A stretch of DNA of 63,997 bases, the filler included, from Diploschistes diacapsis (lineage: Eukaryota): NCBI GenBank assembly GCA_023645945.1. It is 4 parts of 4 records of this genome, joined end to end, with 100 filler letters (N's around TTAATTAATTAA, not from the genome) between each part and the next. Parts side by side here need not be neighbours in the genome. Positions count along the whole stretch, not along the records: positions 33,759 to 50,500 come from JALAIB010000487.1; 3 more parts are not named here. One strand, written 5' to 3'. Positions 4,258-56,500 of the stretch are shown piece after piece (positions within the stretch are counted from its first letter, which is position 1; every line of letters starts with the position of its first letter). Under the pieces are notes generated by a model. The model worked only from the letters and a program-made list of their open reading frames with translations. It did not search any database and was not told the DNA's origin. Both the position numbers and the translations under genes were made by a program.

Positions 4258-6158
4258 CTATCCTAGTATAACGTTAAAGCTCGCAGACGCCACGTCCGCC
4301 ACATATGCTGGCGACGCGCCCTGCTTGAACCTCGCACCGCCTGGAACGCCACCATCACCACCACTCGTCATTGGGGCCGTAGAATTACCCGCGAGCCAAG
4401 TATTCACTGTCGCTGCATCCAGCGCTGTATCGAAATCGACCCAGCTACCGAGGACCTGGATGTGGACCTGGTCCCCGGAGACGATGAGCGCCATCTTCAT
4501 GCTTGCCGCGCCGTCCGGGCGGGGAAAGCCCTTGGGTGGGGTACCGGAGTAGTGGCCGTTCATGTGGAGGCTGGCGTAGCCGATGGAGGGGGGCTCGTTG
4601 CCGGGGAGGATCTCGATGACGTCGAGCTCGCCGGCGCCGTTGCTCCAGCCGGTGCAGTCGCCGCTGAAGGAGAAGCCGTATTGGCCGATGTTGATGGTTG
4701 TACTTGCGAGAGACCACCTGGAGACGCTTGTTAGCATGGGTGTCGAAAATAGGTGCCGAATACCGAAGGACTTACCAAGCGGGCAGGTTCGTGTTCTCTG
4801 CCATACCAATAAATTGGTTTGTGCAGTAGGACCCGCATTTGCTTTGTGGCATCTGGAATTCAGCAAGGACAACTCGATCGCCTCCCCAGCCATCTGTTGT
4901 CTTGCATGAGCTTTTCATATTGTTGATGGGGGCTTGACATACGATGAGCGATTGCTCCAGGCGTCACCACACTGCATCCCCCCTCATTGTCACTGGAAGA
5001 GCAGAGAGAGTCGGTGCTGACGATAACCTCGTAGTTGTCAGGGATGAATCCAGAGGAGCCTAACATTGAAGGGCCTTCTGCCTTGTAGGCTCCATTGGAG
5101 GCAACCCAGCCTGGCAGGAAACCGAATGCCTCACTGATTGTCATTAGGTTTTGTTGGTTTTGCCGGGATAGGGATGCTTACATCGTCATATTGTTGTTGG
5201 CGGTAAAGGCAATACCATTGTTCGTCTGCGAAGGGGCATCAAAGTATGCAACACGGGGCCAGCTCCCTGAGCCAGAAAAACCTGCGCTTGGCCCGTCACC
5301 TGAACTTTGAGTATAAACGCTCGATGATGCGGCAGTTGGCGAAGGAACGTTGCTGGACGAGCAACTTGTTGAGACAGCTGAGCTGTATGTCGTACGTCCA
5401 TTATTGACTTCGCTGTAGACAAGTCCACCACTGGTCGTGCTCTGTTTGTCTGCGCTAGCTGAGGCTATGACTGCACTCTTCAGGGCACTGCTGATTGCAC
5501 TGACAATCGCTTGGCTTTTTGCACTAGGGGATGCACTGGCGGCGGCCATATTGGTGACTGTCTCAACCGGTGCCGCAGGATTGTTCCAAGTGTCGGCGAA
5601 ACTCACGACGTTCCCATTGATCGTAGCAGTAATCTCTAGATCGCTGGCAGGTGCAGGAGCAGAGGTAGCTGGAGTATACCAATTATCCTCAAAGCTATCA
5701 ACCTTGCCGTCGATAGTTGCGATCACTTCTGTTCCATAACCACGCTTTTCGACCTGACCACCGAGCTCTTTTCCATGATGATGGTGATTGACGCGCTTGA
5801 TGTCGTGAGAGTGACGGCGCGTATGAGGCTTGCCTTTGGTGTCGCGCTTCATATTGGTATTGGGCTGAGTAGTGGACGCCTGGTAGACGGCGAACTGCAG
5901 GAGGTTGAGAGGCCCGCGAAAGATGTGAGACATTTCATCAGTCAGAGGAGCCAGAGGTCCGTCAGTCGTCACATCCTGCAAAGGACAGCTGGGATTTCCA
6001 TTGTTGTAGTTGACTACAGCAGCTCTCTGGTAGGTGTAACCACCAGGGAAACCTCCGAAAGAGAGAGCGTTGGTAGTCTGTCCGCTACCTACTGCGTCGC
6101 CGGCGATCGCTGGAATCACGCCGGCGAATGCAGCGCTGGCAAGCAGAAGCTGGTTCAT
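4258..6158 (-). CDS. Secreted TOS1/PGA52-like cell-wall protein (DUF2403 + DUF2401), multi-exon
   Basis: Signal peptide MNQLLLASAAFAG; IFRGPLNLLQFAVY motif; Ser/Thr-rich linker with two ATI(D/N)GxVxSF repeats; C-terminal WSNGAGELDVIEIL; introns near 5134-5182, 4900-4940 and 4718-4775. Confidence 0.88.
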
Positions 6159-16815: not shown

Positions 16816-16915
16816 NNNNNNNNNNNNNNNNNNNNNNNNNNNNNNNNNNNNNNNNNNNNTTAATTAATTAANNNNNNNNNNNNNNNNNNNNNNNNNNNNN
16901 NNNNNNNNNNNNNNN
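16816..16915. other. Assembly gap with artificial six-frame-stop linker
   Basis: N-run, TTAATTAATTAA, N-run; exactly 100 nt. Confidence 0.98.
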
Positions 16916-27894: not shown

Positions 27895-28399
27895 TGCGAT
27901 AGCGAGAGGCTACAAAGTGTTTTGTGGTAGAAGACTATTCTGAAATGGAGACAAAACGGAAGCGTTTTAATGACTTTAAAGGGGTTCGGCGAATTCTGGG
28001 GTAAATCGTAAAATTATGCTGAAAGATTACCAGTGAAGCTCAACCTTGAAGAGCTTTAAGTTCCCGCGCTTGGTCTAACTCGAACCAGTAAAGCGTGTCA
28101 TACAAGGGATCAGGAGCCATCATGTGATTGTGAGATTGGGACAGAGACATTAGATACCGTGACATGATATAGTATTTTGGTACTTTTGGACATGCGCCAA
28201 AAAGACAGGCAACAGTCAACAGTCCTTGAAGTATCATTCTGTAGCCTCATTGCTTGGTTTTGGTTGTCGCAAAGGCAATCATGATTACAGTCGATAATTA
28301 ATTAAGTGCCCTGGTTTGGTATTAAACCCCCGGAATTGACTGCTTGGGTAGTCACCGCAAAGTTCTACTGATTCATTGGCCAAGACCCCTATTATAAGA

Positions 28400-29778
28400 A
28401 TGAATACTCGACAGCTCATAAACGAGCTTAGTGGGCCTGTCTCCTTGTCCGTATCTTACAATTCCAATTGCACATGCTTTGCGGTAGGGCTAGACACAGG
28501 GTTCTGTAGTATGTGCTCACTCACCACGATTGATTCCAAGTCCGCTTGTACTATTGTTTCATAGTCTTCAATACCGAGTCATGCGAGCTAGAGACCGCAC
28601 GAGGTAAGGAAGGACACGTTTTCCATTGAAGAACAGGGATGTACTAAGTTGACTGTAAGATTTCAATGCTGGCATCGGCACTGCCGAAATGCTCGATCGT
28701 ACGAACTATGTGGCCCTTGTTGGCGGCGGCAGGAAGCCCAAGTTCCCCCCAAACAAGGTGCGCAAGCATGTCACGCCTCTGCTTATCGACGACACATTGA
28801 AAAGACTCTAGGTGGTCCTCTGGGACGATGGCAAGCAAAAAGTAACAATCACTCTTGAACTTCTTACACAGGTCCATGGAGTCAGACTTTCTCGCTCAAA
28901 CATCGTCATTGTTCTGCTGAACAGTGTCCACATATACGAGTTTTGTTCGCCTCCAAGGAAACTATTCGTCTTCGAGACCGCGGACAACCTTGCAGGACTT
29001 TGCTGTCTGGGCTCGAAAATAGTGGCATTTCCAGGACAGACATCGGGCAAAGTCCAGATCGTCGAACTAGGCACTGGGAATATCAGTATAATCCCAGCCC
29101 ATGAGACCTCTCTGCGGGCAATGGACCTGACCTCTGACGGCGAGTTGCTAGCGACTGCTAGCGGAAAGGTGAATCTCTCTGCACATGGAAGTGATGAAAT
29201 CCAGGCCTTCTCACTAAGAATACCTCTAGGGAACCCTTGTCAAAATATTCTCGACTGGAAATTGTGCAAAGATAGCGGAGTTGAGACGTGGCATTGACCA
29301 TGCACGCATCTTTTCGATTAGATTTTCACCTGACAACAGGTATCTAGCCGCAACATCAGACAAGTCCACACTGCACGTTTTTGATGTACTCCATCCAGTA
29401 GCGTCAAGCCCGGCTGTCTTGTCAGACAATGCGAACGAACAGGACTCAAATCATAGTCAGAAGTGGGGCATTTTAGGTAGAATACCGTTCATGCCCAGAG
29501 CTTTCTCTGATGTGTACTCATTTGCATCGGCCCACTTTGAAAGCAACGATGGTCTAGCATCCTTTCCGGCAAGTAGCTTATCGACGACAACACAAACTGT
29601 GCCCGGAGTTCCGGGTGGCCGAGCTTCGAAGGGTGTTATTGGATGGCTCAATGAACTAACAATAGTCGTCATTGGGGCGGGTAGGGACGGAAGGTGGGAG
29701 AGGTTTGTGATCGTTGCGGGAGATGATGGTAAAAGGTATTGTCTTAGGGATGGCTGGAAGCGTTTTCTTGGACGGTAG
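28400..29778 (+). CDS. HSV2: PROPPIN WD40 protein Hsv2 (SVP1-like 2), multi-exon
   Basis: MNTRQ start, [36 protein letters not shown] phosphoinositide motif, [19 protein letters not shown]. Confidence 0.92.
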
Positions 29779-29928
29779 AGTAATATTAGTGATTCTTCAA
29801 TCTCCTAGAAGAGTTTTGGAGCTGCTATTAAAGGTCAAGCACCAAGATAGACGCTCCACCAGGCGTTAAAATCAATCAGGCGTAAGCCCCAGGACTGGCT
29901 AAATATAGCTTCTGTCCCTAAGGGTATC

Positions 29929-30628
29929 TCAAGTGCGCTGCTGACGTGTGTGATTCTCATGGTGCCTGTCCTTGCTTCGTCTTCTCTGTTTACCTCGCTT
30001 TTCATGCCTCTCCTCTTCACGCCGTGCAAGGTAATCTTTCATGGGGTCTTCATCGTCATACCGGTCTTCAATGGCCATAACATCCTTTGTCTGGCGACTT
30101 CTGTGATGTTTTCTCGATTGACCATCCCCTTCGATGTGGCGGCGGTGGTGATGGCGGTGACGCTTCTTTTCGCCATCCACATGAACCTCATCTGGCAACC
30201 CGACAGAGACGTAGAACTCTTCATCATTCTCATCGTCTCGCTTCTTGTACCTTGTATGATCTACCCGCAGAGTTCGGCCTAGGACCGCCGCACCACCCAG
30301 ATTATCTACTGCGAGGTCTGTGCTTCGTTGGTCCTCATATTTCAGAAATGCAAACCCTTTACTTTTCCCAGTTTCCTTGTCTCGCACGAGCTTCAACCAA
30401 ACAGGTTCGCCAAATTGAGAGAAAATCGAGACAATATCCCCTTCGGTAAGATCGAAGGAAATACCGCCGATGTAAATATAAGCAGTATCTCGATAATCAG
30501 TGTGCCATGATGCCGAGGATGGCCTTAACAAGGTTTAGCTTTCTGTGGCCCAGAAGGTGAAAAGGAACTTACACGCAATTCTCCAGCTCACGCTTATTTA
30601 GTGTTTGTATCTCTCTTACTGTATTCAT
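29929..30628 (-). CDS. IST3: U2 snRNP/RES complex RRM protein Ist3 (Snu17/RBMX2)
   Basis: MNTVREIQTLNKRELE exon, then SWHTDYRDTAYIYIGG, GKSKGFAFLKYEDQRSTDLAVDNL, RVDHTRY. Confidence 0.94.
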
Positions 30629-31223
30629 GATGATTACGCAACTGGGGTTTGCCCAACAAAAGAAACCGACCGTGAGCTAGGGAATCTTATATTCTTTCCC
30701 CACAAGGCCGTAGCTTATTGCCGTATAGTCATAGACCCTAGCATGATGCTGAATATTGAGATTTATGATTCATGTCAAAGTAGTGAGGACTTCGTGGTTC
30801 AGGAGTCCAGTTGACTAGTGGGCTTGATTATAGCCTTAAAACTGTGTTATGAGTGTAGCATTTCCCAGTGAATAGGGGATCACTTGTTTCGAAGGAGATG
30901 CAAGTTTTTAATTATGCTGTGGACTGATTGTTCAGTATGAGTAAGACAAAATTTTAAACCTATCGTTTAGTTAGGCAAGGGCTTATTGACTCTCTTTAGG
31001 CGAGCTAAACGCGTTCAAATGATTTCAAACACTAAGTGGTAACAGAGCGAATTGGCTCGACCATGTTTGGAATTAGTCGAATGGATATAGGTTATGGTCC
31101 GAGCCTTCAAGGAATATTGAAAATATCGTTCACCTTCAAAGACAACCTGGGCTGGCACCATGTGCGAGATAGCTAAATGCATAACAATATCTTCATTTCA
31201 CTGTGCTTGACAATCCACCAGCG

Positions 31224-33035
31224 ATGAATTATCCTCAACCATTCCCCTCTTCTAAGAAGCCACCAAATGCTTTCCGAACGCAAGTAGACCAGAATGACAA
31301 AAACACGTGGTCAGCACTATTAGATAGTGTAGCAAGCGGGAAGCGGTTACCAGAGAAGAGAGTAGTCGTGTTAGGTACGTCGAGCTTTCTACTTCGTCCT
31401 AAGCAGGCCTAACAAAGGACAGGAGGCTCTTCAAACATACAGAAGGATTTTGTACGAGTTCTCGGCTCGGACTCGTTAAAGATAACATCGGACCGTCAAA
31501 AGAAACGACCACCGATCGCCAATGAATTTGCTCTTGGTTATACATACCAAGACGTATTAGATGTGGACCACGAAGGTAGACGATGATCATGGGGCTTTTT
31601 TATCTCGTCACTCACTCTTTTTACAGATATTCTGGCAAGGTTGTCTATCTATACCTTGCAGGACTCAGCTCCTGCGTTCGCTCCACTGTTACAATCGCTT
31701 CTGACTCCCGCCGTTATCCCCGAGAGTCTTTTGGTTATTTTATTGGACTGGTCTCACCCGTGGTCATGGGCCAGGCAGATCCGGGACTGGATCCAACTTC
31801 TCCATCGGGTGCTTTCGACACTTGATGACGGCTCAAAGACCATCATGCAGGAGGTTATGCAAGACTGGCAGCAGAGAAGGAGAGGCGGAGCCTACGACAC
31901 TGGTGGTGCAAGCACGAATGCTGATATGAATGTTAACGTGCCTCTGGGTCCGGGTGAATGGGACGAAGCGCTAGGGTTGCCCTTGTGTGTAGTCTGTCAT
32001 AACGTGCGTGCCCACATATTTAGACCATCGGAAGCTCACTATAGTAGTCCGAGCAAATTGATGTTTTGGAAAGGGAACATGGTTGGCGCGAGGAGGATTT
32101 CGACTACGTCCTGCAATTTTTGCGAACCATTCTTTTGAAGCGTAAGTCGTCTGGTCTATGTTATGCGAATTTTTGTCTGATTTAGCCTAGATGGCGCGTC
32201 TTTGATATACACCTCTAGCTCGATGCCAAATTCTCTTCCACTCTTGGTGCAGTCCAGTCTCGGCATTCATTCGATTCTGAAGCGTCAACTACTGAAACAT
32301 AATGTAGTTGATCGTGAAAAAGTTCTCATTCCCCCGAATTGGGATTCATGGGGGAAAATCAGAGTCCTAAGGGACGGCTTCGATGTGGAGAGCATTAGTT
32401 CGGGATGGGGCCTAGAAATCCAACCAAGCGAAACGAAAGCAAATGGTGCAAACGTATCTACCACGGAGCCCTTAACTAAGCAACATGATGGAGAATCAAT
32501 AGCGAACGGCCCTGTGGCGGACTTCGAGAACACTATTCAAGTCCCCAGCTCGAATAAGCCTAAAATTGAGCTTTCGCCCATGCAAAGCGGCGTGGAAGTC
32601 GATACAATGGGAATGCAAGATTTTCTTGCCAAGCAAGCCGATGCCATAGAACGCCTTAAAGTCGAAGAGGAGCAGGCAGCCAAGGACGTCGGCAGAGAAG
32701 CCGCCAACAACTATTCAGACATCTCCCTAGGAAGCAACTTCATCATCGAAGACACAAGCCGTGTGAAAGAGCATGTGGGGCCGATTCAATTCAACATGGG
32801 AGGTATCCAGCTTGATGCAGAAGACATGCTCAATCGAATTAAAGATCGTGGCAGCAAAGACGAGGTACCTCAAAGCCCGCAAAAGGAGAGGGCTTCGATG
32901 CTATCACCTGGGGTCAACGAGCAAGGCAAACCTCGACAAGAGGCTCTGGCTTCTTTCTTCGCGGGTCTTATTAAGAAAAGCGGAGGAAGTGCTCCTAGCA
33001 CGCCACCGCCGAAAGATAAATCAAGGATAGGGTAG
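31224..33035 (+). CDS. nudN: Cytoplasmic dynein light intermediate chain, multi-exon
   Basis: WSALLDSVASGKRLPEK, ANEFALGYTYQDV, LLDWSHPW, GEWDEALGLPLCVVC, IPPNWDSWGKIRVLRDGF, QFNMGGIQ, LASFFAGL. Confidence 0.92.
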
Positions 33036-33614
33036 CGACGGGCTTTTACTACGGCCTTTTCCTCGCGAAACAGATTTAAGAGGTGTTAACTGATAGCTAC
33101 CTGGAGACGACCCTTGACTGTCCAATAGTTTTGCTCACTGATGAAGAGGAGGGTCCCGTTGAAAACATAGGAAACTCGGCTTTCACAAGGGTATGCTTCC
33201 GCCTACGCGCGTGCTTGAGTTTATAGAGGGGCACAGAGACGAATATCTGTCAGCGAGGTATGAGCATGATTGTGCCTCTGGCTGGTCATCAATACCATAT
33301 CGTAAAGAGATCTTAGCAGCTTCACGTTTGTGACAGGCTGCAATGACTATAGGAAGGTCGCTACTAGAGTGCTTGCGCGCATGGCATAAAGTGATTGACC
33401 CAGCGACTCGAACTTGCTTCTAGTGCACACAGCTCTCGACGCGGCTACTCAGAATGATTTCTGGCTGACGCTAGTCCACTGGAGCCTGGCAAATCTAGAT
33501 TTATATAATGCGGCACTTTGATTGATCAGCGAAACCCTCTTGAACAGTGGATTCCGAGTGCAGAAACCCGTTCCACAGAACAACCTTGCTCCTCCGCCTC
33601 GGAGAAAACAAAGC

Positions 33615-33919
33615 ATGGTACATGACAGTCTTGCACCACCCCTCTCCCCCACCAACCCNNNNNNNNNNNNNNNNNNNNNNNNNNNNNNNNNNNNNNNNNN
33701 NNTTAATTAATTAANNNNNNNNNNNNNNNNNNNNNNNNNNNNNNNNNNNNNNNNNNNNCCCCCAAAAAAGCACTAGCTAACCGACCGCCCGAAACCGCCC
33801 TTTCTTCAATACTCAACCAGGCGCACGATGCGTCGCCGCTGAGAAAGGAGATGGGGCGCCATGATGTGGAGGGCTGGGAGATGGTGATGGGTTGGGAGGC
33901 TGTGGAGGGGAGGTTGTAA
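33615..33919 (+). CDS. Probable gene interrupted by the assembly gap (only the ends are visible)
   Basis: ATG at 33615 is open into the gap; after the gap an open frame (..ALSSILNQAHDASPLRKEMGRHDVEGWEMVMGWEAVEGRL) ends at TAA 33917-33919. Confidence 0.35.
33659..33758. other. Assembly gap with artificial linker
   Basis: N-run / TTAATTAATTAA / N-run, 100 nt. Confidence 0.98.
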
Positions 33920-35490
33920 GGGAAATGGACCAACGAAGTTCTCTATTGACTCAGTTATTTGTGAATAAAGTCTTACGCGTCATGATTCATGATTCATACA
34001 AATCGGTAGACTGAAATTGTCTGTCTGCGCCGAAGCATTTGGGGGTTTCTAACACCTTTTCAGAACATGAGCAGTGCTTTGGGAGTATGAGGTGCATGGT
34101 CAGTATAACGACATTGAGATTTTACAATACTTTAAACAAGCAAAAAACTTTGAATCCAACAAAGGGAAACACGAATTCTTTCTCCCAACTTGGTCCTATA
34201 CCTCCATGTGATTGCCCTGCAGGTTGTGATTCATGGTTTTTTTGGTATAAGAAAGCTATATAGTAAGCATATAGACATCGCCGAAGCGACACATGGCAAT
34301 TGCTCAAGTATGAACTAGCCTTGCCCTCAATTGCTTCTCGAAAATAAGTTATTCCACTGCAAAGCACACCTCACTATAATATGTTGTACTGAGGACCTCT
34401 TGCAGCCTAAACGTGTATCTATATTGTTGCCGGTCTGGCGAGCCAAGAATTGAGTAAGCCCGGATATCTCGTAAGATTCACAACCACCATTGCAACAACA
34501 ACAACAATGTCTTTCTATACTGTTAGGGAAGCTGTCGAGCTTCACTATATTAAATAGCTAACAAAGGCGTTTGAGGCTTTGGAGAACCTGCTGTCGTATT
34601 GAGACGCCGGAATATCTTCATATTGCAAGAAAAGAAGACTCTTCACTGCTATGCTCTTGGCGCGGCAATCTCTTTCTCGTTGGAGACGCTCCTCGAGAGC
34701 ATGGATCACGCATCTGAAAGAACAAACAATGTTGGCGGTTGAAGCTCATGCCCCTGGAACGTTTGCAAGAGCATGCTTTGGTTGGTCTAGAGGTCCTTAG
34801 CTGAAGTGTCTTTTACCTGCAGAACGTACCTCCCAGTAGGTGCTTCGACCATTGGCTCACTGGACCATTATCTGGCTTGCTGGAACGGTAGCGGCGTGGT
34901 AGTGACAGTGAACAAGCGCTTGATTTCTTCCCTATCTGGTTTTTCTTCTTTTTTGAAAGTATGTTAAAAGCTACTGGGGCAAAGAAAAGCTTAACGGATA
35001 TGTCTTCAGGTATACCCGCTCTGTTAGGCTTGAGTTCCTCAAGCAGCTTGCACGGAACCATTTAGAGTTGTTGCGTGTATGCTGCTTTCCCGAACCCCAT
35101 CTTTGAATACGGTACCTGAAGGATAGGGAAAGGCACGAAGACCTTGTATCTGGCTGTTGAGCTTTGGATCATCCCAGCCTGGCATGCCCTGCCAATGGAT
35201 TGTGGAAGTTCTATGTATGTTTTTAACCGGTTTCATTGCTATGGCCTTTGAGGGGATCATCTTTATTCCTAATATTAAATCCCGGTTGGTTGTGTCTCTG
35301 CGAACTAATCACAGTTCCCTACTATCCTCGACTTCCCGTACATGTTTCCTCAGCATCTCTGCTTCATCTGTCGTCAGCCTGCTCCTTTATTTGTCCACCT
35401 GCAATCCTTCTTTATATCTCTCAGCCGCTATTATCCGGCCCATCTTTCCACTGTGCTGAACGCAGATTCCTCATAAATCGGATATCTAAC

Positions 35491-36624
35491 ATGAGCACAC
35501 AGCAAGACAGGAAGCCTCCGGCCCCTAAACCAATTTTTGTCATTTCTGTTGTCAATTACCGCGAAAAGGACGGAGGGGCTCCCACAGCAGCGTTGGGTGT
35601 GCAGACTGACGACGGGAAGGGTTGCGATTACATCAATCCATTATTCAGAGCCACTGTCCGGGATCACAAGCTCTCGCTTGCCAGAGCACAAATCATTCTA
35701 ACTATCAGAGCGCTTGAAGAAGGATATATCGAGTACTGCCTGAGAGAAGACGCCGCGTACGAGCATGGAGCATGCTTAGTACACCCGGTTCCCATTGTCG
35801 TTGGCATCGATTCTCTCCATATCATCAACGACATCTGGCCCAACATTGGCAACTGGTATGAAAGAGACTGGAAGACCTCGAAGAACAGACCAGTTGCCAA
35901 TAGCGATCTATTACGATTCATCGCGGAACTTGACATGGCAATGGCCAAGATGAATATCCTAGCTAGTGTCACGTACGCACCATTTGACAAGTCTATTACA
36001 CACAAGCAACTCGACAGGATGCTTGATGCCCAGAAAGTGCCGACGAACAAGGAGACCTGGATCTTGACCAACCAATGCGGGCAACCGATGTGCAGCAATC
36101 CGCTTCTTTTTCGAGATTTTAGACTCATACACGCCGAGACGGTTGTTAGCGCAGACAAGTATACGACCCTCCATGCAATCGGTGTTGGGACCGCGCTCTT
36201 GAATGTGAAACTCCGGGGTGGAAACACGGCAACTCTGTTTGTACGACATGTTCTCTACGTTCCGCGTATTTGCCTGAACGTCATACCGATGAATTACCGC
36301 CACTTCGTCACCAAGGAAGGAGCTGAGCAGGTGGCAAGGACTGGGACGGCCACGCATCTATCGAACGTCACGCAGCACTTCGACCTCGTGGACAGAAGGC
36401 TAAAAGATGGCCAGGGCAAGGAAATTGGATATACGCAAGTCGATAATGGCATGAGCGTCTTGGTTCAGGATGGCATACCTCTTGAAATACACCCACCTGG
36501 CACGCCAGAAAACTTGAAAGAGTGGTATGATGTGGATGGATGGCTAGTAGGGGGAATCCCAAGGAAAACTGGGAAGTTTGACTACCGGGTAATTGTGGAC
36601 GGCGTGCCAGAAGAGTACCTTTGA
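35491..36624 (+). CDS. Chimeric protein: degenerate RNase H1-like domain fused to a degenerate Ty1/copia protease-like beta-barrel domain
   Basis: 377-aa intronless ORF from ATG 35491. RNase H1-like: ARAQIILTIRALE, VGIDSLHIIN, NWYERDWKTSKNRPVANSDL. Copia protease-like: WILTNQCGQPMCSNPLLF, AIGVGT, HVLYVPRICLNVI. Confidence 0.75.
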   Translation: MSTQQDRKPPAPKPIFVISVVNYREKDGGAPTAALGVQTDDGKGCDYINPLFRATVRDHKLSLARAQIILTIRALEEGYIEYCLREDAAYEHGACLVHPVPIVVGIDSLHIINDIWPNIGNWYERDWKTSKNRPVANSDLLRFIAELDMAMAKMNILASVTYAPFDKSITHKQLDRMLDAQKVPTNKETWILTNQCGQPMCSNPLLFRDFRLIHAETVVSADKYTTLHAIGVGTALLNVKLRGGNTATLFVRHVLYVPRICLNVIPMNYRHFVTKEGAEQVARTGTATHLSNVTQHFDLVDRRLKDGQGKEIGYTQVDNGMSVLVQDGIPLEIHPPGTPENLKEWYDVDGWLVGGIPRKTGKFDYRVIVDGVPEEYL

Positions 36625-37140
36625 TAGAGTAAATAGGGTTCAAAAGCCTGTCGGATATGGACGAGGATATGTTGAGTTCATGATGGACACCCGTCCGAAG
36701 CATTCGGCAACGTACGGTGCGGTGGGAAATTGATGCTTTGATGAAAGATATGAAATGAGATGGATGCAAGGTGTGATTGTTGAGAGAAGACGACGACTAG
36801 TGTTGTTGTATCGTGAGATCACGCATGGAAGCGGGTGATAGAGGGTTGGATCATCTGAAGCAATTGGCAAAGTCTATTGAGTTGACCATAGAGCAATAGT
36901 GGTCTTTCTGCCTTTGCATGCTGACTACAAGGTATTGGGCAATTAAAATGTAGGCTTAGTTGCGCACCAGATAGATAGAGCAAACTTCCGCAAGGAAGGT
37001 GACACTACCGGTAATTCAAATCAACATCATATGCTTGATCAATCGTCAGATAGCTCTTCAGAAAGATTTTTCTTACCATGACGTTCAACCTGTAGCTCCA
37101 GGCTGTAACCAAGACTGAAGGAGACACCTTCCTGTAGGCC

Positions 37141-38515
37141 ATGCCGTCGCGTCAATTCAAACACAGATCACGATCCATTCAGCGTACTCTACTGGCTCGC
37201 TGGCGAGCATTGCTCACACTATGTCTCATCCTCGCCCTTGAATCTCTATACCACGTTCGCAGCCTTCTCACCGAGTCGCCAGCGCAGCCCGTCGACGCGC
37301 CCTTCCACACAACATGCCAGGAGCCCGACGTCGACGCGGCCCGAGCCAACGCTACAATCGTCATGCTCGCGCGCAACGGCGACCTAGACGGCGCCGTGAC
37401 CGCCGTGCGATCCCTCGAGAAGCAATTCAACCGCTTGTACCACTACCCGATCACGTTCCTAAACGACGCGCCCTGGTCCCAAACCTTCATCGACGCCCTA
37501 ACGGCCGCATCCAGCGGCGCCGCCACATTCTCCACCATCGACGCACGCGCGTGGGGGTTCCCAGCCTGGATAGACCGGGCCAAGGCCGGGCGGGAAATGC
37601 AGGCGCAGAAGGCCGCGGGCCTGATGTACGCGGACAAGGCCAGCTACCACCACATGTGCCGCTTCAACTCGGGCTTCTTCTACGACCACCCGGCGCTGCG
37701 GGGCTACAGGTGGTACTGGCGCGTCGAGCCGGACGTGCGGTACACGTGCGCCATCACCTACGATCCCTTCGTGGAGATGGAGCGCCGCGGCAAGCGGTAC
37801 GGCTACGCCATCGCGCTCTGGGAGGAGGGCCGCACGGCACCCAGCTTGTACCGCAAGGTTGCGGATTGGAAGGCGGAGCGCCGGATCGCGACGACCTCGC
37901 TGTGGGCTGCGCTGGTGGATCCGTCCACGGCGCCCTGGCCGCTGCGGAAGATGCTGAGTTTCTCGCGGAACAGAGATGCGGAGGGGGACTTGTGGAACAT
38001 GTGCCATTTTTGGAGCAATTTCGAGATTGCCGACATGGAGTTCTTCAGGAGTAAGGAATACAGGGAGTTCTTTGATTTCTTGGATGCCGATGGGGGGTTC
38101 TACTATGAGCGGGTGCGTAAAACCTTGCTTCGCTACTTCTCCTTTTATCCTTCTTTCGTCCTGCGCGTCCCGCTCTGTCACTTCGCTTTTGCACTGCCCA
38201 ATCTTGCTACGGGCAAACCATGTATTAACGAGCATACAGTGGGGCGACGCGCCTGTTCACTCCCTGGCAGCAGCGTTGTTCTTGTCACCAGCGGAAATCC
38301 ATCACTTCTCTGACTTCGGCTATGCCCATCCGCCTTTCCAGTACTGTCCCCTGCTCGAGAAGGCGACCGGCAACTTCCCTCAGTTGAAGGACATGACGGC
38401 GGCGGGCTGGAAGGAGCGATTCAAACAGATAGGATGTCGATGTGACTACGATCCGGCTCTTGCAAAAGTCATTGATCCGACCTGTATGAACACAATTGCT
38501 CGCATTTTGCATTGA
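37141..38515 (+). CDS. GT15 alpha-1,2-mannosyltransferase (KRE2/KTR family)
   Basis: N-terminal TM segment; ANATIVMLARN, SYHHMCRFNSGFFY, WYWRVEP, CHFWSNFEI, GGFYYER-WGDAPVHS across an intron ~38113-38239. Confidence 0.95.
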
Positions 38516-39329
38516 AAGAAAGTCGGCCCTTGCGAACTTGATGACCCGTGGTAATCATCCTCTTGCAATGGGGTACTGAATCAAATTGATGGCACCCTTG
38601 TTTTTACAAAGTCAAAAATTCTACCTGCCAAAAACCTTGTACCAGTATGAGTTGTACGGCGAAGGATGAATGCTAATTCCTCAAGGTCCTAAGATGATCG
38701 CAAAGCACAAACTGGGTGCAAACAATGCTACAAGGACACTTCTAGAAGGAATAGGCGCCCGTGAGTTCACCAGATGGTAAATATATTGGAGAGCTCCCCC
38801 TGGCCACGAGAGGAAGAGGGGGGGGGGGGACGAATAGGATGATAGGCATCTCCCAGGTGCCGTGGCCATATATCTACAGTAGCGCGGTAGTATGGTCACA
38901 TCTTTCTGTTTACAAAGCATATGGGGGGGATATGGCTTGTGGCTCATGGCGGGAGCTTGTCTGGTTTCATTTCCAGAATTAGGCAAAGCAATGCGATTTG
39001 CGCCTATAAAATTTTAGATCACAGTCTTGTTACCAAGCTTTTTCCTTATCCAGAAGACGCTGTGATGAGATTCATGCTGGCCTTGTTTTCCTTCGTCTCG
39101 GGCCCCTTTACGAATTCCGAACTCCGCGGTTCATGGTGGACGGCTAACGAGGGAAGGCTGATGGTCTCGCCAGCCAAATTCCGACCGTTCCTGTTACTAC
39201 CGAAGAGATGTTAGTTCGATATGGTCTTGTACTTTCCATCACCTGGTTTCAGTGAAGCGGTGTAGGCTCTTTCTCTTCAGAAAGACAACTGCTGCGGCAA
39301 TATCTCGAGTTACGACGGAGTCGGGAAAT

Positions 39330-40609
39330 GACCGCTAGAGCCAAAAGCATCGGGAAGAGAAAGGGATCCTGGTCATGCGACCCGGGATGGATGTAGTGAG
39401 GATAACAACCTCAAGAACTGGAGTTATAAAAAAGCGTTGGACGATCATCCTTTTGATGTCAAGTTCTGCATTTCTTCCTTCCCCATCCTCTTCGATTATT
39501 GCCACCTCATTGACGCAAACTACCCTGTGCTTTGGAGTGCAGAGTAACGTGGAAAGGCAGATGATGCTCTCAGTGTTCATTGTGGCCTACGTTATTGTTC
39601 TACTTTTCCTTGGCCCTATATTCGATGGGTCTACGATCTTGCCTAGAATGCTGGCAACTGATCGCTTTTCGTTTCTTGGCAGGCATTAGCGGAAGCGCAC
39701 CTTTCTCGCTTGTTGGAGGGATCCTTACTGGTTTGTGAATACCAGAAGAGCGTGGTTATACCGTCTCAATATATTCTTTGATGCCATTGTTTACACCAGC
39801 GACCGGACCCATAGTTGGTAGCTTCGTTGCCGTGTATGTAGGTTAGCGATGGTCCTTCTACGCAACACTCTTTGCGAGTGTTGTAATCCAAGCGTTGGGT
39901 TTTTCCTTCTTCAAGAAACCAACGAACCGAGGATACTGCACCTCAAGGCTAAGAAGATGAAAAAGACGACAACGGGCGATGGAGCCTTGCACACAGACTT
40001 CGAGCACCTGGACCAGCCTTGAATGAAGGTCTTGAAAGAAAGAAAGTCTTAGTTGGCTGCTCGTAATACTGGGAATACAAATCATCGTACAGGTTGCTTT
40101 GACAATAAGGTGAGAAGTATACGACTCGAGGAAGAAGTTGTAATGAATCGTCTAGATATATAAGCGACTTAAGGATCAGTCGCCGGACAAGAAGGATGGC
40201 CAGAACTTCGGTTGCCGTTTCTGTTTCTTGGGGCCGTCCTGTTACCTACAGGTATGTTGTTTCAGTGCATCCAAGGTCATCTCATCGATACGTTTCTGCA
40301 GTTCGCCGTATCCGCCATAGCGGCAGTGTTGGTCGCGAGGAGCTTTGGTGGGATTTGCAAGTGACCATGTTTTCCTTGGATCTTCGTCCCATATTCTAAG
40401 TATAGGACATCATGGCTGATTCTACAGTACTTTTTTTAGAATTTCCTTTTGTCGCACCTTATGTGTACTCGGCGTTGGGATATGGATGGGAAGGCAACCC
40501 TTTTGCTTTCATAGCAACAGTGCTGTGACTGTCAGGGCCTATTCTGGTGTGGGAATTCGGGCCTGGACTGAGAGCGCACGGCTTGATGGGGAAGAAGATA
40601 GAAACATGA
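39330..40609 (+). pseudogene. Pseudogene of a DHA1 MFS multidrug transporter
   Basis: Collinear fragments in shifting frames: KKRWTIILLMSS, SVFIVAYVIVLLFLGP, RFLAGISGSAPFSLVGG, TGPIVGSFVAVYVG*RWSFY (stop 39844), APYVYSALGYGW...IATVL*LSGP (stop 40526). Boundaries approximate. Confidence 0.85.
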
Positions 40610-40853
40610 AAGACAAGAAGTTATACAATTTAAACTAGATGAACGTAGTCTTCCGCTACGTGCATGTTGCTATTGAGGTTGGTTGCCGCAAATGACGTAA
40701 ACGTCAACACCCGCCGAACGCTACAAACCTTCAGTAGAATACTTAGTTGCAACTTTCCTCTTCATGCTACTGAGAAGTATGGGATATGTACACAAAATGG
40801 CAGGTTATGCCAAATCGGCGTTCATGATTACTAGTGACGGACTGTGAACGCAG

Positions 40854-41849
40854 ATGAACCTATTACATCTGCAGCATGCTCTCCGCGCCCCCTCTCGCTA
40901 TGCGCCCTGTCGCGTGTGTGCGCCAAGTCGACCTCAACTGGCTATCCCAAGCACTCGACAATGCAGAACATTAAGAATAAGGTCTCACAACCCATTTACC
41001 CAGTACGCAAGCCAAGAGCCGCAGTTAGGAACCGATGAAGAGAAGGAGTCGCCCCGTATATCGTGGCAGCAAGAGGAGGAACTGCACCATCAGACTCGTC
41101 CAAGAGCTATACCTTCCGCGGCGCTGCCTAGCCCTACATCCTTACACCCTTTCACGCTGCCTTTGCTGCTGCCCCATATATCACCCTCCCATTTTCACAC
41201 CTCCCTGTCCTCCTTCCTTGCCTACGCCTCCCGCACCGGCCTCTCCCCGACTACCACCGTCTTTAAAGGGACGAAATACGAGTACATCTGCCTTTCATCT
41301 CTCCAGCGATTTGGCTTTTCGCTTCTGCGCACTGGCGGCGCTAATGATGTCGGCATTGACCTCATGGGAACATGGACACTCCCTACCTCCGCACATCCTC
41401 TAAGGGTGTTAGTGCAGTGCAAATTCCGCCGCGCTAAACCTAGTCCCGTGTTGGTGAGAGAGCTGGAGGGGAGCTTTATTGGAGGGCCGCAGGGTTGGAG
41501 GGATGAGGATTACGATAGCGTCGAAAGCGGAGGGGCTGACGCAGGGTTGGTGGGTGTGCTCTGTGTGCCGGGAGAGCCGACAACGAGTGTGCGGCAAGCG
41601 GTGAGGAGGAGTTTGAGAGGGATTGTTGTGGCCGTTATCAGTGAAGAAGGACAGGTCAAGCAGTTTTTCTGGAACAAGAGGGTTGAGGAGCTAGCGCTTG
41701 AAGAGTGGGAGGTTGGTGGGAGGTATCTTGGAGGGCTGAAGGATAGGGAGGCGGTGCTGCTTTGGAGGGGAAGGATTTGGGAGCCCGAGGAAGAAGGTCA
41801 AGAGCAGAAGGAAGCAGGTACGGAATATGCTAAGGCGAGCGAAGCATGA
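40854..41849 (+). CDS. RRG7: Required for respiratory growth protein 7 (DUF2034, restriction-endonuclease-like fold)
   Basis: VFKGTKYEY, RTGGANDVGIDLMGTW, VLVQCK, PVLVRELEG, QFFWN; presequence-like N-terminus. Confidence 0.88.
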   Translation: MNLLHLQHALRAPSRYAPCRVCAPSRPQLAIPSTRQCRTLRIRSHNPFTQYASQEPQLGTDEEKESPRISWQQEEELHHQTRPRAIPSAALPSPTSLHPFTLPLLLPHISPSHFHTSLSSFLAYASRTGLSPTTTVFKGTKYEYICLSSLQRFGFSLLRTGGANDVGIDLMGTWTLPTSAHPLRVLVQCKFRRAKPSPVLVRELEGSFIGGPQGWRDEDYDSVESGGADAGLVGVLCVPGEPTTSVRQAVRRSLRGIVVAVISEEGQVKQFFWNKRVEELALEEWEVGGRYLGGLKDREAVLLWRGRIWEPEEEGQEQKEAGTEYAKASEA

Positions 41850-42225
41850 AGCTCTAAGCTTCGTTTGGATACTTCTCTCTTCTCTTTGCAGTGCATTCAG
41901 TCGGCTGCTGCTCACTTTCACCATAACTAGCCTGTCCTGCCTTTGCTTCCGAAACACCACCCAAAGGACTATTGCTTGCTTGCGTTCTTCAATCTTCGTT
42001 CTCGAACTAATCTCCACTTAATCATCGGTCGGATACTTCCACGCTAGTTCTTGATTGGGAGCAAAAGCCCTAAGCATCAGGCACGGCCTGCTGAGACAGC
42101 CGCGACCTGGGACTGTTGTCTTTAACATTATGTTGGATAATTGTATTCTCCTCTTCAAGCTACCCTCGAGTAACTGGCGCTGAAAGGTAACGACTTTCTT
42201 TCACGAACCTGTATGCAGTTTGGCT

Positions 42226-43222
42226 TCATTTGTCAAGGTTCCTCGCCTTTACAAAGCGTGCAATCTGCTCCTTACATGTCTTATCATTATACTGTTCCCA
42301 CACCTCATAGAGGGAGATAATCTCCTGTGTACTATCAATCATGGCTGCAATATCGATTTCGGACTTTGCGAGCCATTCAAGCAGATGTTTAACTTTTTTC
42401 TTTTGCAGGTTGTTATCGCTATTCTCCGTCGAAGGCGACTCTTTCTCCTTGGCGGAGAGGATAGCAGTCGCTAGAGCAGTCTGGAGGCCGCCTTGCGATG
42501 GTTTCAATGTCATGGCGAAAAATATCGCCATCGCTGCAATGATGTGAAGTGGATATAGCAATGGCAGATCTGTCAGATAGTGGTCGTTGATGATGTTCCA
42601 GGCTAACGTTACGTCTTCCTGGCCCATGTTAAGTGTGTTCTGAAGCTGGCCCAAAGTACGATAAGGGTGGTGGACAATAAGCTGGCAGTCCATCTCCGAG
42701 ATAAGGAAGAACTCGCACTCTCCTAGCTTTGATACATCGGTAACAATGAACTCTGCAGCAAGGTTTGCTTAGCCTACATCGCCTTTAAGAGGCTTGACGT
42801 GCATACCAGGCCATATATTACGGGCTTCGCTCACAATAACTCTGATATACTGCGGACACTCTTCCATTTTACAGGCAAGGTAAAGGGCAGTCGATATGAC
42901 CAAGTATGGATTCGTCTTCCTAATTTCCACTCTTAGGTAGAACCTACGAATGTATATCTGGGCGGTGGCTATTGCCTGCTGTCTGGTTTGCAAACGCCTT
43001 CCCAGCTTGATTAACTCTGGATGCGTTAGTCTCCTCCCCATCACAGGCTTTGGCTTTATTACGTTGATTGAAAAAGATACTGAGGTGGCGTCTATCTGGC
43101 AACGGATACTGTTGGACAAGCGCAGACTCTTCCTTTTCAAGGGCTTGTCGCGTGTTCATCAAAGCCTTTCTGTCGAACTGCCAGTACTTGTGTTGCGTGG
43201 AGTCCCAGTAATTGGCTGCCAT
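42226..43222 (-). CDS. SSN8: Mediator cyclin C (Ssn8/Srb11), 3 exons
   Basis: [55 protein letters not shown]. Confidence 0.96.
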
Positions 43223-43761
43223 ATTGTACAATGGCTCAAGCTCTCATTGCCGATTGAGGAGGCTGATAACCTTGTTGGCATCGTAGTCTTATTTGGATCC
43301 GCTTTGATTAATCCAATCGTTGAGGTATAGGGACAGGCAACCCCGGGATCTGGTTCAACGTCTGGGTATCCATAGAGGAGTTATCCTAGCATGAGTTTCA
43401 GTTTTTGACGTAGTCTCCGAACGTATAGAGTATAATCTGCACAAAGCATCAGATGATGGAATCGTATAGGTAGTCTCTGCTGTTGAGGCTCTTCTGATAG
43501 TATAAAAGCTGGCTAGTAAACTGCAACGTCATAGGGCTGCCATGAATCCTGCGGGAACGTGGAATAACTTCACGCGCTGTTCTTCCATTCCTAGCCTCCA
43601 GATGAGATGCTAGCATTGCTCAGACTGCGAATCCTATGTTATAGTGCGAACATAGCTCTCGGCTCTCGTGCTTGACTGAAAGCTGTATGAGAACAAAAGG
43701 GCGCAGCTCGCAAGCTTACAATAATGAGCAAGCGGAGTTAGCCCCTCAAGGCTGACCGACT

Positions 43762-45887
43762 ATGGAGCATGAATCGCAGAACGCGCAGGACGCTCGGGTT
43801 GAGAGACTGTGGGAATCGCTGCATACAGGACCTATCAAGCCTCTTGACCTAGAGGGTCTAAGGCTAGGATTGAGAAAAATAGACCATCGTAAGGATTTAG
43901 GTTCCTACCCTTGGTATAGAGTTTCCACTAACCCAAGGCCCAGCTCTGGCACACGCAGAGAACTTACTCCGTGAGATCTTCAACGCTGTTGACACTAGCG
44001 GCGACGGACGAATAGAATACTATGGTATCTAGAAACTTCAAATGGGAATGTTTCCCGTCCTGACCCAATCTTCTAGAATTCCGGGAATTTGTTGAGCAGA
44101 CGGAGTTAGAATTACGGCGGCTTTTCAAGAGTATTGATACCAATCATAATGGCTGGCTAGATAGGGATGAACTGCGACGCGCTTTTGAAAAAGCAGATAT
44201 TGCGATTGATAGCGGGAGGTTGGATAGTTTCTTCGACAAGATTGATACCAACCACGACGGAGAAATATCCTTTGACGAATGGAGGTCAGTTTATACCAAT
44301 TACTAGCAGACAACACCGACTAATTGAACATAGGGACTTCCTTATGTTTCTGCCCTCGAACTCGACCGACCTCAAAGCCGTCCTTTCATATTACTCTTCC
44401 TATGTCGTGGTGAATCCGGAAGGGGATGTTCATGTGTCAGATGAGGCAAACCAGGGGATAGGTACAAACGCCTTTTTGCAGACTCTTTTCGGTGTTTTGT
44501 TTTTGATTGCGAACCAAAACTCTAAACACATTCGAACACCCACACTTGAGCCACTCAACAATGTTCGCGCTTCGACAATACAACATCGTCAGACTTCTCC
44601 GTCAGCCATAGACCGTAGCGATATTCCATGGGATCCAGGCGAAAAAGAAAGTTCTTCAGAAATGGCGCAAGTCACTGCTACCATTCAAATTGATTCCCTG
44701 GAGGGATCATTCCTTCACATGCTGACGAATCTGCTCCCTGATCCAGGTTACTTTCTCGCGGGTGGTATTGCCGGCGCCGTCTCTCGCACCGCGACAGCTC
44801 CACTCGACAGGCTCAAAGTGTATTTGATTGCCCAAACAAATGTCAGCAAACCCGCGATTGATGCTGCTAAATCCGGTGCTCCTCTACAAGCTGCAAAAAC
44901 TGCGACACGCCCTTTGATTAGCGCGACTATTGAACTATGGCGGATGGGAGGGATTCGTAGTCTCTTCGCCGGTGAGGAGCATTGTCCCAATGTCCATAAA
45001 GCAGCCCTGATAGCTATAGGAAATGGACTGAACGTCTTGAAAGTGATGCCAGAATCTGCGATAAAGTTTGGCTCTTACGAAGTATGTGTTTATTAGGAAG
45101 GGACTGAACAGGCATACTAATTGCATATTAGGGCTCAAAACGTATTGCGGCAAGGCTAGAAGGCCATGACAACCCACGAGCTTTGAGTGGGTTGTCACAA
45201 TTTCTTGCTGCTGGGATGGGAGGTGTCATTTCACAGTAGGCTTATTGCAAATCTCTACATTTTAGCGACTTACAGACCCGGTAGATTCGCCATCTATCCC
45301 CTCGACACCTTGAAGTTGTTAGTGATACTATATTGCAAGTCAACTTGCCTCGCTAACCCGCCACTAGTCGAATGCAAAACGAGACCGTGAAAGGCGGACT
45401 TCGAGGGAACAAGCTCATCGCTGCAACGGCTAAGAAGATGATGTTAGAAAGTGGTCCGCGGGCATACTATCGAGGACTTGGCATGGGTCTGATAGGAATG
45501 TTCCCATACAGCGCGATCGATCTCACAACATACGAATTTCTGAAACGACTCATCACCAATCGCAATGCAGCTAAAATCAAGTGCTCACAACGCGATGCGG
45601 AGCCAGGAAGAATGACGACGGGCCTAATCGGAGCGGTGAGTAGCTCGTTTGGCGCCAGCACAGTTTACCCGATCAACCTGGTACGGACACGTATGCAGAG
45701 TCAAGGCACTGCAATACACCCTCCCACCTACGATGGATGGAGGGATTGCTTTGCCAGGACCATAAAAGGTGAGGGGCTCCGTGGGTTGTATAGGGGGCTC
45801 ACACCCAACCTCATGAAAGTTGTCCCGTCGATGAGCATTTCCTACATGGTTTACGAGACAAGCAAAAAGGTTTTGGGCCTACGGTAG
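43762..45887 (+). CDS. SAL1: Ca2+-binding mitochondrial ATP-Mg/Pi carrier (EF-hands plus carrier repeats), multi-exon
   Basis: EF-hand loops [89 protein letters not shown]. Confidence 0.94.
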
Positions 45888-50500: not shown

Positions 50501-50600
50501 NNNNNNNNNNNNNNNNNNNNNNNNNNNNNNNNNNNNNNNNNNNNTTAATTAATTAANNNNNNNNNNNNNNNNNNNNNNNNNNNNNNNNNNNNNNNNNNNN
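50501..50600. other. Assembly gap with artificial linker
   Basis: N-run / TTAATTAATTAA / N-run, 100 nt. Confidence 0.98.
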
Positions 50601-54268: not shown

Positions 54269-54959
54269 AAGTCGGATCGTTCCTAAGCGAAGCGCACTCC
54301 GCATGGCCTTTCCTAGCTGTAATGGAGTATGAGTGACCTGACCTCGGCTAAATTAGGTTATGAGATTCCTTTATAGACTGCATCTGTTCGTCAAATGAAG
54401 ATGGTAAGAGTAGAACCATAACAAGTGTATTGCGGAGTTAATTAGAACCTTGTGAACTTGATGTGTAAATCCATGGGGTACGGACTGTTTCTCGTCTTCG
54501 AAACTCCAATGTTTCCGCTATAAAACTGTCGACCTCAATATTATGATATATATGATCGGACAAGTGTCTTGAGTTCGTTTTTACGCTTCCTATACAACAA
54601 GTTCTATCTCCGCGTTGCCGGTTCCAGAGCGGTGGCCAGATAATTCAATATCTACAGCGAAGAGCGGAGGATGCCTCAACGCAGGCTGGAGAGACACTTC
54701 AAATTCCCCACAAGAGCTCGACCATCAGGCAAAAAGTGCTTTATGCACCTCCCCTTTAGTTATCCGGCGCCAAGGGCTACATACTTGCAGGCCTGGTGCG
54801 TGTCTGTCCAATCGGGCACGAACCGTGAGGAGCACCCGGCAAGAAAAGTTAGTAGCGAAGGAGAAGAGGAAGGAGGGAGATAAAGACGACGACGGCACCA
54901 ACGATTACGAAGAGCAATGTTCCTACTACTCCAGGAGCTTCCACGGACGGTCATCACGG

Positions 54960-56500
54960 CCTAGAAGAAGCCGTCGCCTCTTGCAAGTTGTCCCGGTCTT
55001 CCTTACTCGCTGTTCTACGTTTCGCACGGCCATCTCGAACGGGGTAACCATCCATTCTGTATTCGGAGAACAAGCTCACCGTGTGCCGAACGCATGCTTG
55101 GGCCCCGAAGCCCCTGCAACACCTGAACGAGGAAATAAGCACTCGCGCTGCTCTGTTTTATTGAGATACGCTTCAACCAGTGTTCTTGTACGTACGGACA
55201 CGCTGCTTACATTGATGATAATCCTCTCCTTGAGCCCTGCCATGAGCTCTGCAAGACCTTACAGCTTCACGACCGGCCCTATGCTTCCACCGCAGCGGAG
55301 GTTTGAGCCAGTTTACAGAGAATGGCGGGACCTGGTCGAGTCTATCCGCGAGTATGTTCCGAACAACCAGCTGTGCTTGTCTTTAGTGTGCGATACCCGG
55401 GACTCAGATGTGGCCGAGGCTGTCTTAGACCCTCTATATCGGTTCCCCTATTCTCGAAGACATCTCGATTCGTCTTGCCGAGCGGCCGAACTGGGGGCTC
55501 CATATGATGGCAAGAAGAGCAGCAATTATAACAATGGATCCAGCGCTATATCCTCCGCCTCTTCCATCCCCTCTGCCTTCTTCGGTTATTTCACCTCCCC
55601 TATCTCCATCATCTCCTTCAGCTCTCCATCTCATCCAAGTCTATTTGATGCTTTGCCACAGGAATACGTTTTGGAAGCGGCTATCGCAATACGAGAGGCG
55701 AAGAGGGAAAAACAGAAGCAGATGCCGCAGTGCCTCCCGGAAGAGATCTCGAAAGAATCCTTTTCCCACTCCTCCCTTATCGTGCCTCTCGATCTAGCAT
55801 CCACCCTCCTCCTGCAGCTGCCTGCGCTTCTACACCGCTTATTCCTCAACCTGCAGCTGCTGAACCCTCCCGCTCCCTCTCTCTCTCGCCTCCCGGACCT
55901 TCAACCGAATTTCCACTGCCCTTTTCTTTTCTTCTCCCTCAACACCTTCCACATCCTCCTTCACTCCGTCACCACAACACTCTGCCTTCCCGACCGCTTC
56001 TCCTAATTTTGCTGGAAGGGCGAACCCGGCCCACTATCTCCCCCGCGGGACAACGAACCTGACGGACTTCTTCACCCACATCCCGCCCCAAACCCTGCCT
56101 TCGCTGCGGCGCATCACCGTCGCCCATCCCCGACATCGAGGCACTGAATTTCCTTACCCACCAACGCTACCAGGGTCGCGTAGGACAGGTGGCGCCCAGC
56201 CTTCGCGCTGCTGGCCGCACACACACCGCCCGACAGAATCACGTTTATTTGGACGACGGTAACCATGAGCACGAGTGCGTGTCTGCTCTTGCCCTCTCTT
56301 CTTCCTTCAAGAAAGGAAAGGAGGAGATGGAAGTGGTGAGGGAAAGGGTGGTGCTAAAGGAGAGGTACGGCGCTTATGCAAGGGGCAAGGCAATGAAGGG
56401 CCGGAGGAGGGTGTGGGAAGACGGATATAGCTGGGAGGAGCCTGATAGATAGAGGGTGTGGGTGGCCAGACGAGAGGGCTGGTACGCGGGTTGGCGATGA
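54960..56500 (+). pseudogene. Degenerate member of a fungal F-box-like hypothetical family
   Basis: QLCLSLVCDTRDSDVAEAVLDPL and F-box-like LPEEI; in another frame CSCLRFYTAYSSTCSC*TLP; several frame changes are needed. Boundaries approximate. Confidence 0.45.

Follow-up and report, generated by a model that had tools for sequence, protein, structure and literature searches.

A putative fungal host gene joins an RNase H1-like domain to a Ty1/copia-type protease barrel, both with degenerate catalytic sites

How does an intact gene come to carry the signatures of both a nuclease and a retrotransposon protease, and what might its product do? This question is raised by an intronless open reading frame (ORF) of 377 amino acids (aa), here called P0001, which lies at 35491..36624 on the plus strand (whole gene, stop codon included) of a 63,997-base stretch of DNA from Diploschistes diacapsis (GenBank assembly GCA_023645945.1). 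The stretch, which we call the window, consists of four contigs glued together by N44-TTAATTAATTAA-N44 linkers at 16816-16915, 33659-33758 and 50501-50600, so that distances and neighbourhood across the linkers are meaningless. The third contig (33759-50500) carries the ORF, which begins 1732 bp in from the left end. We read it as a host gene of a lichen- or rock-associated fungus and as a member of a small unnamed family. As shown by profile matches, the predicted architecture of this family is a cellular-type RNase H1 catalytic domain with its basic protrusion and without a hybrid-binding domain, followed by a Ty1/copia-type retropepsin-like barrel. Judged by its residues, P0001 itself is a double pseudoenzyme, because the barrel has lost its catalytic Asp and the RNase H tetrad of its clade is down to one carboxylate.

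The initial annotation had described the ORF as intact, intronless and not eroded towards AT, and this description holds. The reading begins at the first in-frame ATG and translates without internal stops, and the stop-to-stop frame around it extends over 465 codons; the longest frame in 200 shuffles of 33759-37140 reached 249. Its composition (GC 0.505, GC at third codon positions (GC3) 0.568, TpA/ApT 0.62, (CpA+TpG)/(ApC+GpT) 1.23) is close to that of six neighbouring host genes and carries no signature of repeat-induced point mutation (RIP). Codon usage correlates with that of host genes at r=0.41 in the P0001 frame, compared with 0.06 and -0.16 in the other frames. Its two ends correspond to the ends of P0002 (388 aa) and P0003 (375 aa), both of them full-length relatives.

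The C-terminal half had been reported to follow the copia protease pattern while reading WILTNQ and lacking the catalytic Asp, and the profile search bears this out. Pol_BBD (PF22936) matches P0001 with 33.8 bits (cut-off 27), aa 190-266 lying on profile positions 1-72 of 81. The match falls within a predicted copia-type retropepsin-like beta-barrel at aa 186-334 (36046..36492, +), where WILTNQ stands in place of the W-I-x-D-S/T-G loop and T193 (T193-N-Q) takes the position of the protease Asp. This column was set by the Pfam coordinates, by the W-I-x-D-S-G...H-M pattern of copia proteases, and by the offset in four retroviral protease rows of a structure comparison. The model used was an AlphaFold2 (AF2) prediction built with alignment A1; AF2 on the single sequence gave a predicted local distance difference test score (pLDDT) of 31.5. 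In the comparison made with this model, all five rows covering residues 186-334 were retropepsins. The first aligned model residue, 186, lay seven residues ahead of the catalytic Asp of the chain in each of the four retroviral protease rows; these Asp residues are D30 in feline immunodeficiency virus (FIV), D25 in equine infectious anaemia virus (EIAV), D25 in human immunodeficiency virus 1 (HIV-1) and D37 in Rous sarcoma virus (RSV). The offset therefore puts T193 at the Asp position, provided that the stretch is ungapped. Foldseek searches of PDB and BFVD with the model gave only RNase H among the matches listed, that domain filling the lists, and a homodimer prediction of aa 184-338, run without an alignment, scored 0.00, which speaks neither for nor against binding.

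In a bioRxiv report (10.1101/2024.02.14.580303), Pol_BBD is located between the zinc knuckle and the gag-pre-integrase domain of a plant copia insertion. The copia protease occupies this position. Llorens et al. (PMC2642776) give an 'xLS' form of the ILG motif, in which ILS replaces ILG, as typical of Ty1/Copia peptidases, and this form is shown by the more distant members of the family, named clade B below. The same paper states that retropepsins have activity only when two half-barrels dimerise (PMC2642776). The barrel of P0001 also carries a clade-specific insert of ~24 aa (aa 271-295) and is followed by a C-terminal tail (aa 335-377; 36493..36621, +) with an acidic motif conserved in the clade, YRV-I/V-VD-x-VP-acidic-acidic-x-L (alignment A2). 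In the tail, which is absent from the shorter relatives, 11/42 columns are invariant, and pLDDT is <50 for residues 344-377.

For the N-terminal half, an RNase HI pattern including the basic protrusion had been proposed. The protrusion part of this stood: in a phmmer search against PDB, the part of E. coli RNase HI around the basic protrusion aligned with aa 95-149 (E=4.5e-4), and P0001 has the RNase H fold with its protrusion. Taken alone, the protein scores only 12.1 bits against RNase_H (PF00075), below the cut-off of 25.8. The RNase H homology therefore holds through the family and not through the single sequence, since P0001 is below the threshold while eight of its ten two-domain relatives and the family profile pass. 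This profile, made from the 11 two-domain sequences and compared with PDB chains, had its best match in the catalytic domain of human RNase H1 (2qk9, E=1.1e-21), with E. coli RNase HI next. Retroviral reverse transcriptase (RT) RNase H chains followed in the same listing at 9.1e-11 to 7.1e-5, the row at 9.1e-11 being an HIV-1 RNase H engineered with the E. coli RNase HI loop. These scores argue that the N-domain is of the cellular type and not a copia RNase H. An N-terminal hybrid-binding domain (Cauli_VI-type, PF01693) was not found in P0001 at E up to 10, and neither such a domain nor gag was seen as an upstream exon in 30 frames of at least 35 aa in 33759-35520.

Alignment A1 places V21, Q67, D107 and K167 at the four RNase H catalytic positions, so that D107 is the only carboxylate of the tetrad kept in P0001. 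This agrees with the earlier reading of the motifs, in which the first two positions were replaced (VISVV, RAQI) and the third Asp was kept (GIDS). The fourth position adjoins a 5-residue gap in the alignment, and its placement is less certain. D175 in QLDRML, which had been considered as perhaps the remaining fourth Asp, was rejected, as it aligns with the non-catalytic 'ALD' of the relatives. The corresponding residues are K, E, A and V in P0002 and S, E, G and P in P0003, each of which keeps just the Glu. W122 and N137, by comparison, are invariant in 11/11 family members; counted along the profile alignment, they correspond to human W225 in the DNA channel and N240 in the phosphate pocket. 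The core that holds these residues spans aa 54-185 (35650..36045, +), with Q67 in helix A, D107, the basic protrusion W122...N137 and K167. It is preceded by a poorly conserved N-terminus and the degenerate first RNase H strands (aa 1-53; 35491..35649, +), with V21 at the first catalytic Asp position. This segment is modelled with strands at 16-23 and 32-39, has pLDDT <50 at 1-14, 25-37 and 39-52, and holds 7/53 invariant columns among P0001-3. The role of the phosphate pocket and the protrusion channel in RNases H1 is stated in PMC8387031.

How widely is this architecture shared? An exhaustive HMMER search of 1.84 billion representatives (E<=0.001) returned 13 proteins, namely P0001 itself, ten two-domain relatives and two tandem RNase-H-only proteins. 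The full-length relatives P0002 and P0003 are 34-35% identical to P0001 (E=1e-42 and 2e-41), and the eight shorter ones, P0004-P0010 and P0013, match over both domains with E=1.5e-15 to 6.9e-4. Both Pfam cut-offs are passed by eight of the ten (RNase_H 39-77 bits, Pol_BBD 32-50 bits); P0002 and P0003 stay below both, with 17.7 and 16.9 bits for Pol_BBD. In the tree, P0001-3 form one clade (clade A, support 100/100), and the other eight relatives ('clade B') make up the rest, a grade rather than a supported clade; the tree was built without P0011, P0012 and the third gene, split by an intron, of the metagenome contig L001. The three members of clade A are all intact, are 31-34% identical and have the clade-specific insert and the C-terminal acidic motif in common.

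At the barrel Asp column we found Ser in nine members, Thr in one (P0001) and Ala in one, so that 11/11 are without Asp. The alignment shows that the loss of the catalytic Asp from the barrel predates the divergence of the sampled members. The picture differs for the RNase H tetrad. It is complete (4/4) in five of the 11 members (P0005, P0007, P0008, P0009 and P0010), retains three positions in P0013, whose last residue is N, and two in P0004, and is reduced to 1/4 in P0001 (V21, Q67, D107, K167) as well as in P0002 and P0003 (Glu only); P0006 is N-truncated. The ancestral state was likely an active RNase H joined to an inactive barrel, and the RNase H site was likely lost later, in the P0001 clade and partly in two other members. 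The initial annotation had P0001 as a host gene built from two inactivated enzymes. For P0001 itself this stood, with both sites lost in a gene that is single-copy in the window, but the gene is not a one-off: it is a diverged member of a family in which the RNase H tetrad is complete in 5/11.

Other searches added little to this family. ESM Atlas gave no usable match, viral contigs gave no family match, and a metagenome scan with alignment A2 found nothing, while a scan with alignment A4 found only contig L001 and its RNase-H-only genes. L001 carries three tandem stand-alone RNase H genes (1849-2379, 3103-3765 and 4473-5052, all +), the third of them split by an intron. They are ~35-45% identical to the family N-domains and have no barrel. 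Two of them nest within clade B (support 80-94), which suggests, at the level of the tree, that the barrel was lost or gained in the course of the family's evolution.

Could one of the domains still be an enzyme, with a non-canonical site? Examples would be a nuclease acting through D107 together with other residues, or a Ser/Thr-based hydrolase in the barrel. D107 is indeed kept, and Ser occupies the Asp position in 9/11 members, a consistent rather than random replacement. Against this, P0001 has V, Q and K in place of three of the four metal ligands, and P0002 and P0003 keep a different single residue, the Glu, which leaves no common site. We know of no precedent for a Ser retropepsin, although no search was aimed at one, and regard residual catalysis of this kind as highly improbable.

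If the protein would act without catalysis, is it maintained at all? The ORF shows signs of purifying selection, as judged from its divergence in X2, an independent run of another study (coded organism A). The ORF interior differs from X2 at 7/1015 positions (0.69%) and the non-coding DNA upstream at 21/812 (2.6%), with one indel besides (Fisher p=0.0016), so that the ORF is 3.8-fold less diverged than its flanks. The majority contig has no indel within the ORF and has indels in both flanks. Among the eight ORF differences listed, five are synonymous and three are replacements (A30V, V103I and T217K), which gives a ratio of non-synonymous to synonymous differences per site (pN/pS) of ~0.18 over 257 synonymous and 874 non-synonymous sites (binomial p=0.018 for the differences listed). 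The segment 35449-35566, which includes the start codon and the first 25 codons, is far more divergent in X2 than the remainder of the ORF. Either a hypervariable N-terminus or the presence of two haplotypes may account for this.

A recently dead relic, drifting neutrally, would explain the motif losses as decay and the open frame as not yet broken. Both active sites are gone, a minority variant with a 1-bp deletion occurs in X2, and the public runs listed include no RNA run, all of which a relic would predict. It would not predict the reduced divergence of the ORF, the five synonymous changes among the eight listed, or a 465-codon frame where shuffles reach at most 249. The three intact full-length members argue in the same way as the divergence data: neutral decay would not preserve, at about 33% identity, intact relatives that share both the insert and the C-terminal motif. 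We therefore think it very unlikely that the ORF is a relic.

A further question is whether the ORF belongs to the host or to a mobile element. The initial annotation had seen no long terminal repeat (LTR), gag, integrase (IN) or RT nearby and had pointed out that an RNase H in front of a protease is not the order of retroelements. The order in P0001 is indeed RNase H then protease, and the LTR/gag/integrase/RT set of a Ty1/copia element was not met with as far as the DNA goes, the contig starting 1732 bp upstream. The ORF is single-copy within the 64-kb stretch of four contigs, direct repeats of at least 30 nt are absent from 28000-44000, transposable element (TE) domains occur in 0/97 open frames of at least 110 aa in the window, and 0/30 frames of at least 35 aa in 33759-35520 have a Pfam match. 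The X2 contigs tile 34500-37700 collinearly, and X2 record 9 bridges 36569-37700, keeping the adjacency of the ORF to the mannosyltransferase gene downstream. Pieces from two further studies, X3 (a rock metagenome) and X4 (coded organism B), are 90-99% identical in the ORF and both flanks; at 151-393 bp and a depth of 2-7, they were used only as evidence that close relatives are present.

The ORF might nevertheless be a piece of, or a gene on, a mobile element not yet characterised, such as a copia lineage in which an additional cellular-type RNase H precedes the protease. Pol_BBD is otherwise a domain of retrotransposon polyproteins, the contig ends 1.7 kb before the ORF, the family, with its 13 matches, is rare and patchily distributed, and the related RNase H genes of L001 form a tandem triplet. 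However, the window holds one copy without an LTR-like repeat, no gag, IN or RT was found in the 97 and 30 open frames, and X2 has the same flanks, with a depth in the ORF (~94, against 83-90 in the flanks; not used as copy number) that does not stand out above them. None of the family members could process a polyprotein, as 11/11 lack the Asp. Word-index protein searches returned P0001 itself, or itself and P0013, and no longer fused form, which counts as weak evidence in the same direction. Taken together, a mobile element appears quite unlikely.

What, then, might the protein do? We propose that P0001 would act by binding rather than by catalysis. The barrel, which is the best-conserved part of clade A (29/81 invariant columns, 36%, compared with 12/47 in the protrusion region and 8/53, 15%, in the remaining RNase H core), may pair with a second retropepsin half-barrel, either its own or that of the copia Gag-Pol protease. 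Since retropepsins need to be dimers, an inactive half-barrel could form homodimers or dead heterodimers, and an inactive half joined to a copia protease half would act as a dominant negative. What is left of the RNase H has kept those protrusion residues that would contact the DNA strand, and it may still be able to hold RNA:DNA hybrids. Where the tetrad of a relative is intact, the barrel would deliver an active RNase H to the replication complex of a retroelement. Pairing of the barrel together with delivery of the RNase H would make antagonism of copia-type retrotransposons the most likely role.

In its farthest-reaching form, which we consider an unlikely possibility, this proposal makes the family a 'Trojan horse' that derives from a protease and defends against copia retrotransposons. 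Here the half-barrel would heterodimerise with the Gag-Pol protease, block maturation and carry the RNase H into the virus-like particle. As reverse transcription proceeds, intact members would degrade its RNA template or its primers, and the P0001 clade, without a nuclease, would act as a pure protease poison or as a hybrid clamp.

A different role would be that of a host nucleic-acid adaptor unrelated to transposons, in which the dead RNase H reads RNA:DNA hybrids such as R-loops or Okazaki primers and the barrel serves as a dimerisation or partner module. The invariance of W122 and N137 throughout the family, the closeness of the N-domain to cellular RNase H1 and the position of the gene among housekeeping genes are consistent with such an adaptor. 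The RNase H core, however, is the least conserved folded part in clade A, which would be odd for a hybrid reader, and a barrel of copia type suggests a copia partner. We consider the adaptor unlikely.

Our preferred reading remains that P0001 is a real single-copy host gene with a tamed transposon part that would work by binding, as a copia antagonist. Several observations weigh against it. The contig begins 1732 bp upstream of the ORF, and a repeat just beyond is possible. The RNase H core is eroding in clade A, so that hybrid binding may be lost too. The pN/pS value rests on just eight listed differences. For the first 16 codons (35491-35538), X2 offers only two alternative short contigs, which span 35449-35566; their depths are 27 and 68, and their 5-6 differences over 118 bp are unclassified. 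The minority X2 variant, a 1-bp deletion at 36550 (depth 60.5 of 258.6), would shift the reading frame of the last ~24 codons and with it the conserved acidic C-terminus, and no RNA run is among the public runs listed for the stretch. We give the whole statement an even chance. Its structural and evolutionary part is very probable, and the anti-copia mechanism is tentative and, taken by itself, rather unlikely.

The surroundings of the gene are those of an ordinary fungal genome. Upstream, non-coding DNA without recognisable coding content runs to the left end of the contig, an assembly break (33759..35490, no strand assigned). The downstream neighbour is a two-exon Glyco_transf_15 host gene (37141..38512, +; PF01793, E=1.3e-78), an alpha-1,2-mannosyltransferase of the KTR/KRE2 type whose C-terminal piece lies in a second frame at 37958-38512. 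Across the window as a whole, the open frames are likewise those of ordinary fungal genes, including Atg6, Scm3, septin, Tos1, a major facilitator superfamily (MFS) gene, the KTR-type mannosyltransferase, RRG7, mitochondrial carriers and a multicopper oxidase. The RRG7 family gene at 40854-41849 (+) has a weak match to Mrr_cat (restriction-endonuclease-like) and looks like an ordinary fungal mitochondrial gene. On the fourth contig, an open frame of 477 aa (54573-56003, +) has no Pfam match, and several other frames of more than 110 aa overlap it. The public DNA run that best matches the stretch is a lichen metagenome, from which it may derive.

With eukaryotic and bacterial RNase H1 (PF00075; human RNASEH1, PDB 2QK9) the P0001 family shares the fold, the basic protrusion and the substrate-contact residues W122/N137. 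P0001 differs in having no N-terminal hybrid-binding domain, in the replacement of three of the four catalytic carboxylates and in the C-terminal fusion of a barrel. The barrel in turn resembles the Ty1/copia protease (Pol_BBD, PF22936; MEROPS family A11) in its profile match and in the motifs W-I-x-[D]-x-x...H-M, G-x-G and V-L-Y/H-V-P...N-L-L-S. It departs from this protease in having S, T or A for the Asp in 11/11 members, in not lying between gag and integrase, and in having an RNase H in front, which does not occur in copia Pol with its order PR-IN-RT-RH. Ddi1/DDI2 and SASPase/ASPRV1 are active proteases that have kept the D-S/T-G site and belong to a Ty3/gypsy-like lineage, whereas P0001 is copia-type, inactive and fused to an RNase H. 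Dominant-negative restriction is known from the truncated Gag p22 of Ty1, from Fv1 and from trans-dominant inactive HIV-1 protease monomers. By analogy, the logic proposed here would be the same, an inactive copy of a retroelement protein co-assembling with the protein of the element and poisoning it. To our knowledge, the natural dominant-negative restriction factors described so far are all Gag-derived. In the full-text literature, supplements aside, no account was found of an RNase H fused to a retropepsin or pseudoprotease. No paper with PF22936 was found there either, and the papers listed for Pol_BBD are plant studies, one of which uses it as a TE annotation. Protein databases may well contain the RNase H1-copia barrel architecture under unnamed entries.

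Retroelement parts that have been domesticated are already known, as are pseudoenzymes; the combination for which no paper was found is a cellular-type RNase H1 domain fused to an always-inactive copia protease barrel. Among host genes made from parts of retroelements, those derived from Gag, Env and integrase are the main known examples, and active retropepsin relatives such as Ddi1 are also known. If P0001 were a relic only, it would still be a clean example of the reach of motif reading, and a caution that the stretch consists of joined contigs. The family also forms a graded series in which the origin of a pseudoenzyme can be studied, with the RNase H tetrad intact in five members, partly lost in two and down to one residue in three. 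If the barrel targets copia Gag-Pol, P0001 would represent a restriction factor derived from a protease, and nature would have its own equivalent of the trans-dominant protease monomers made by engineering.

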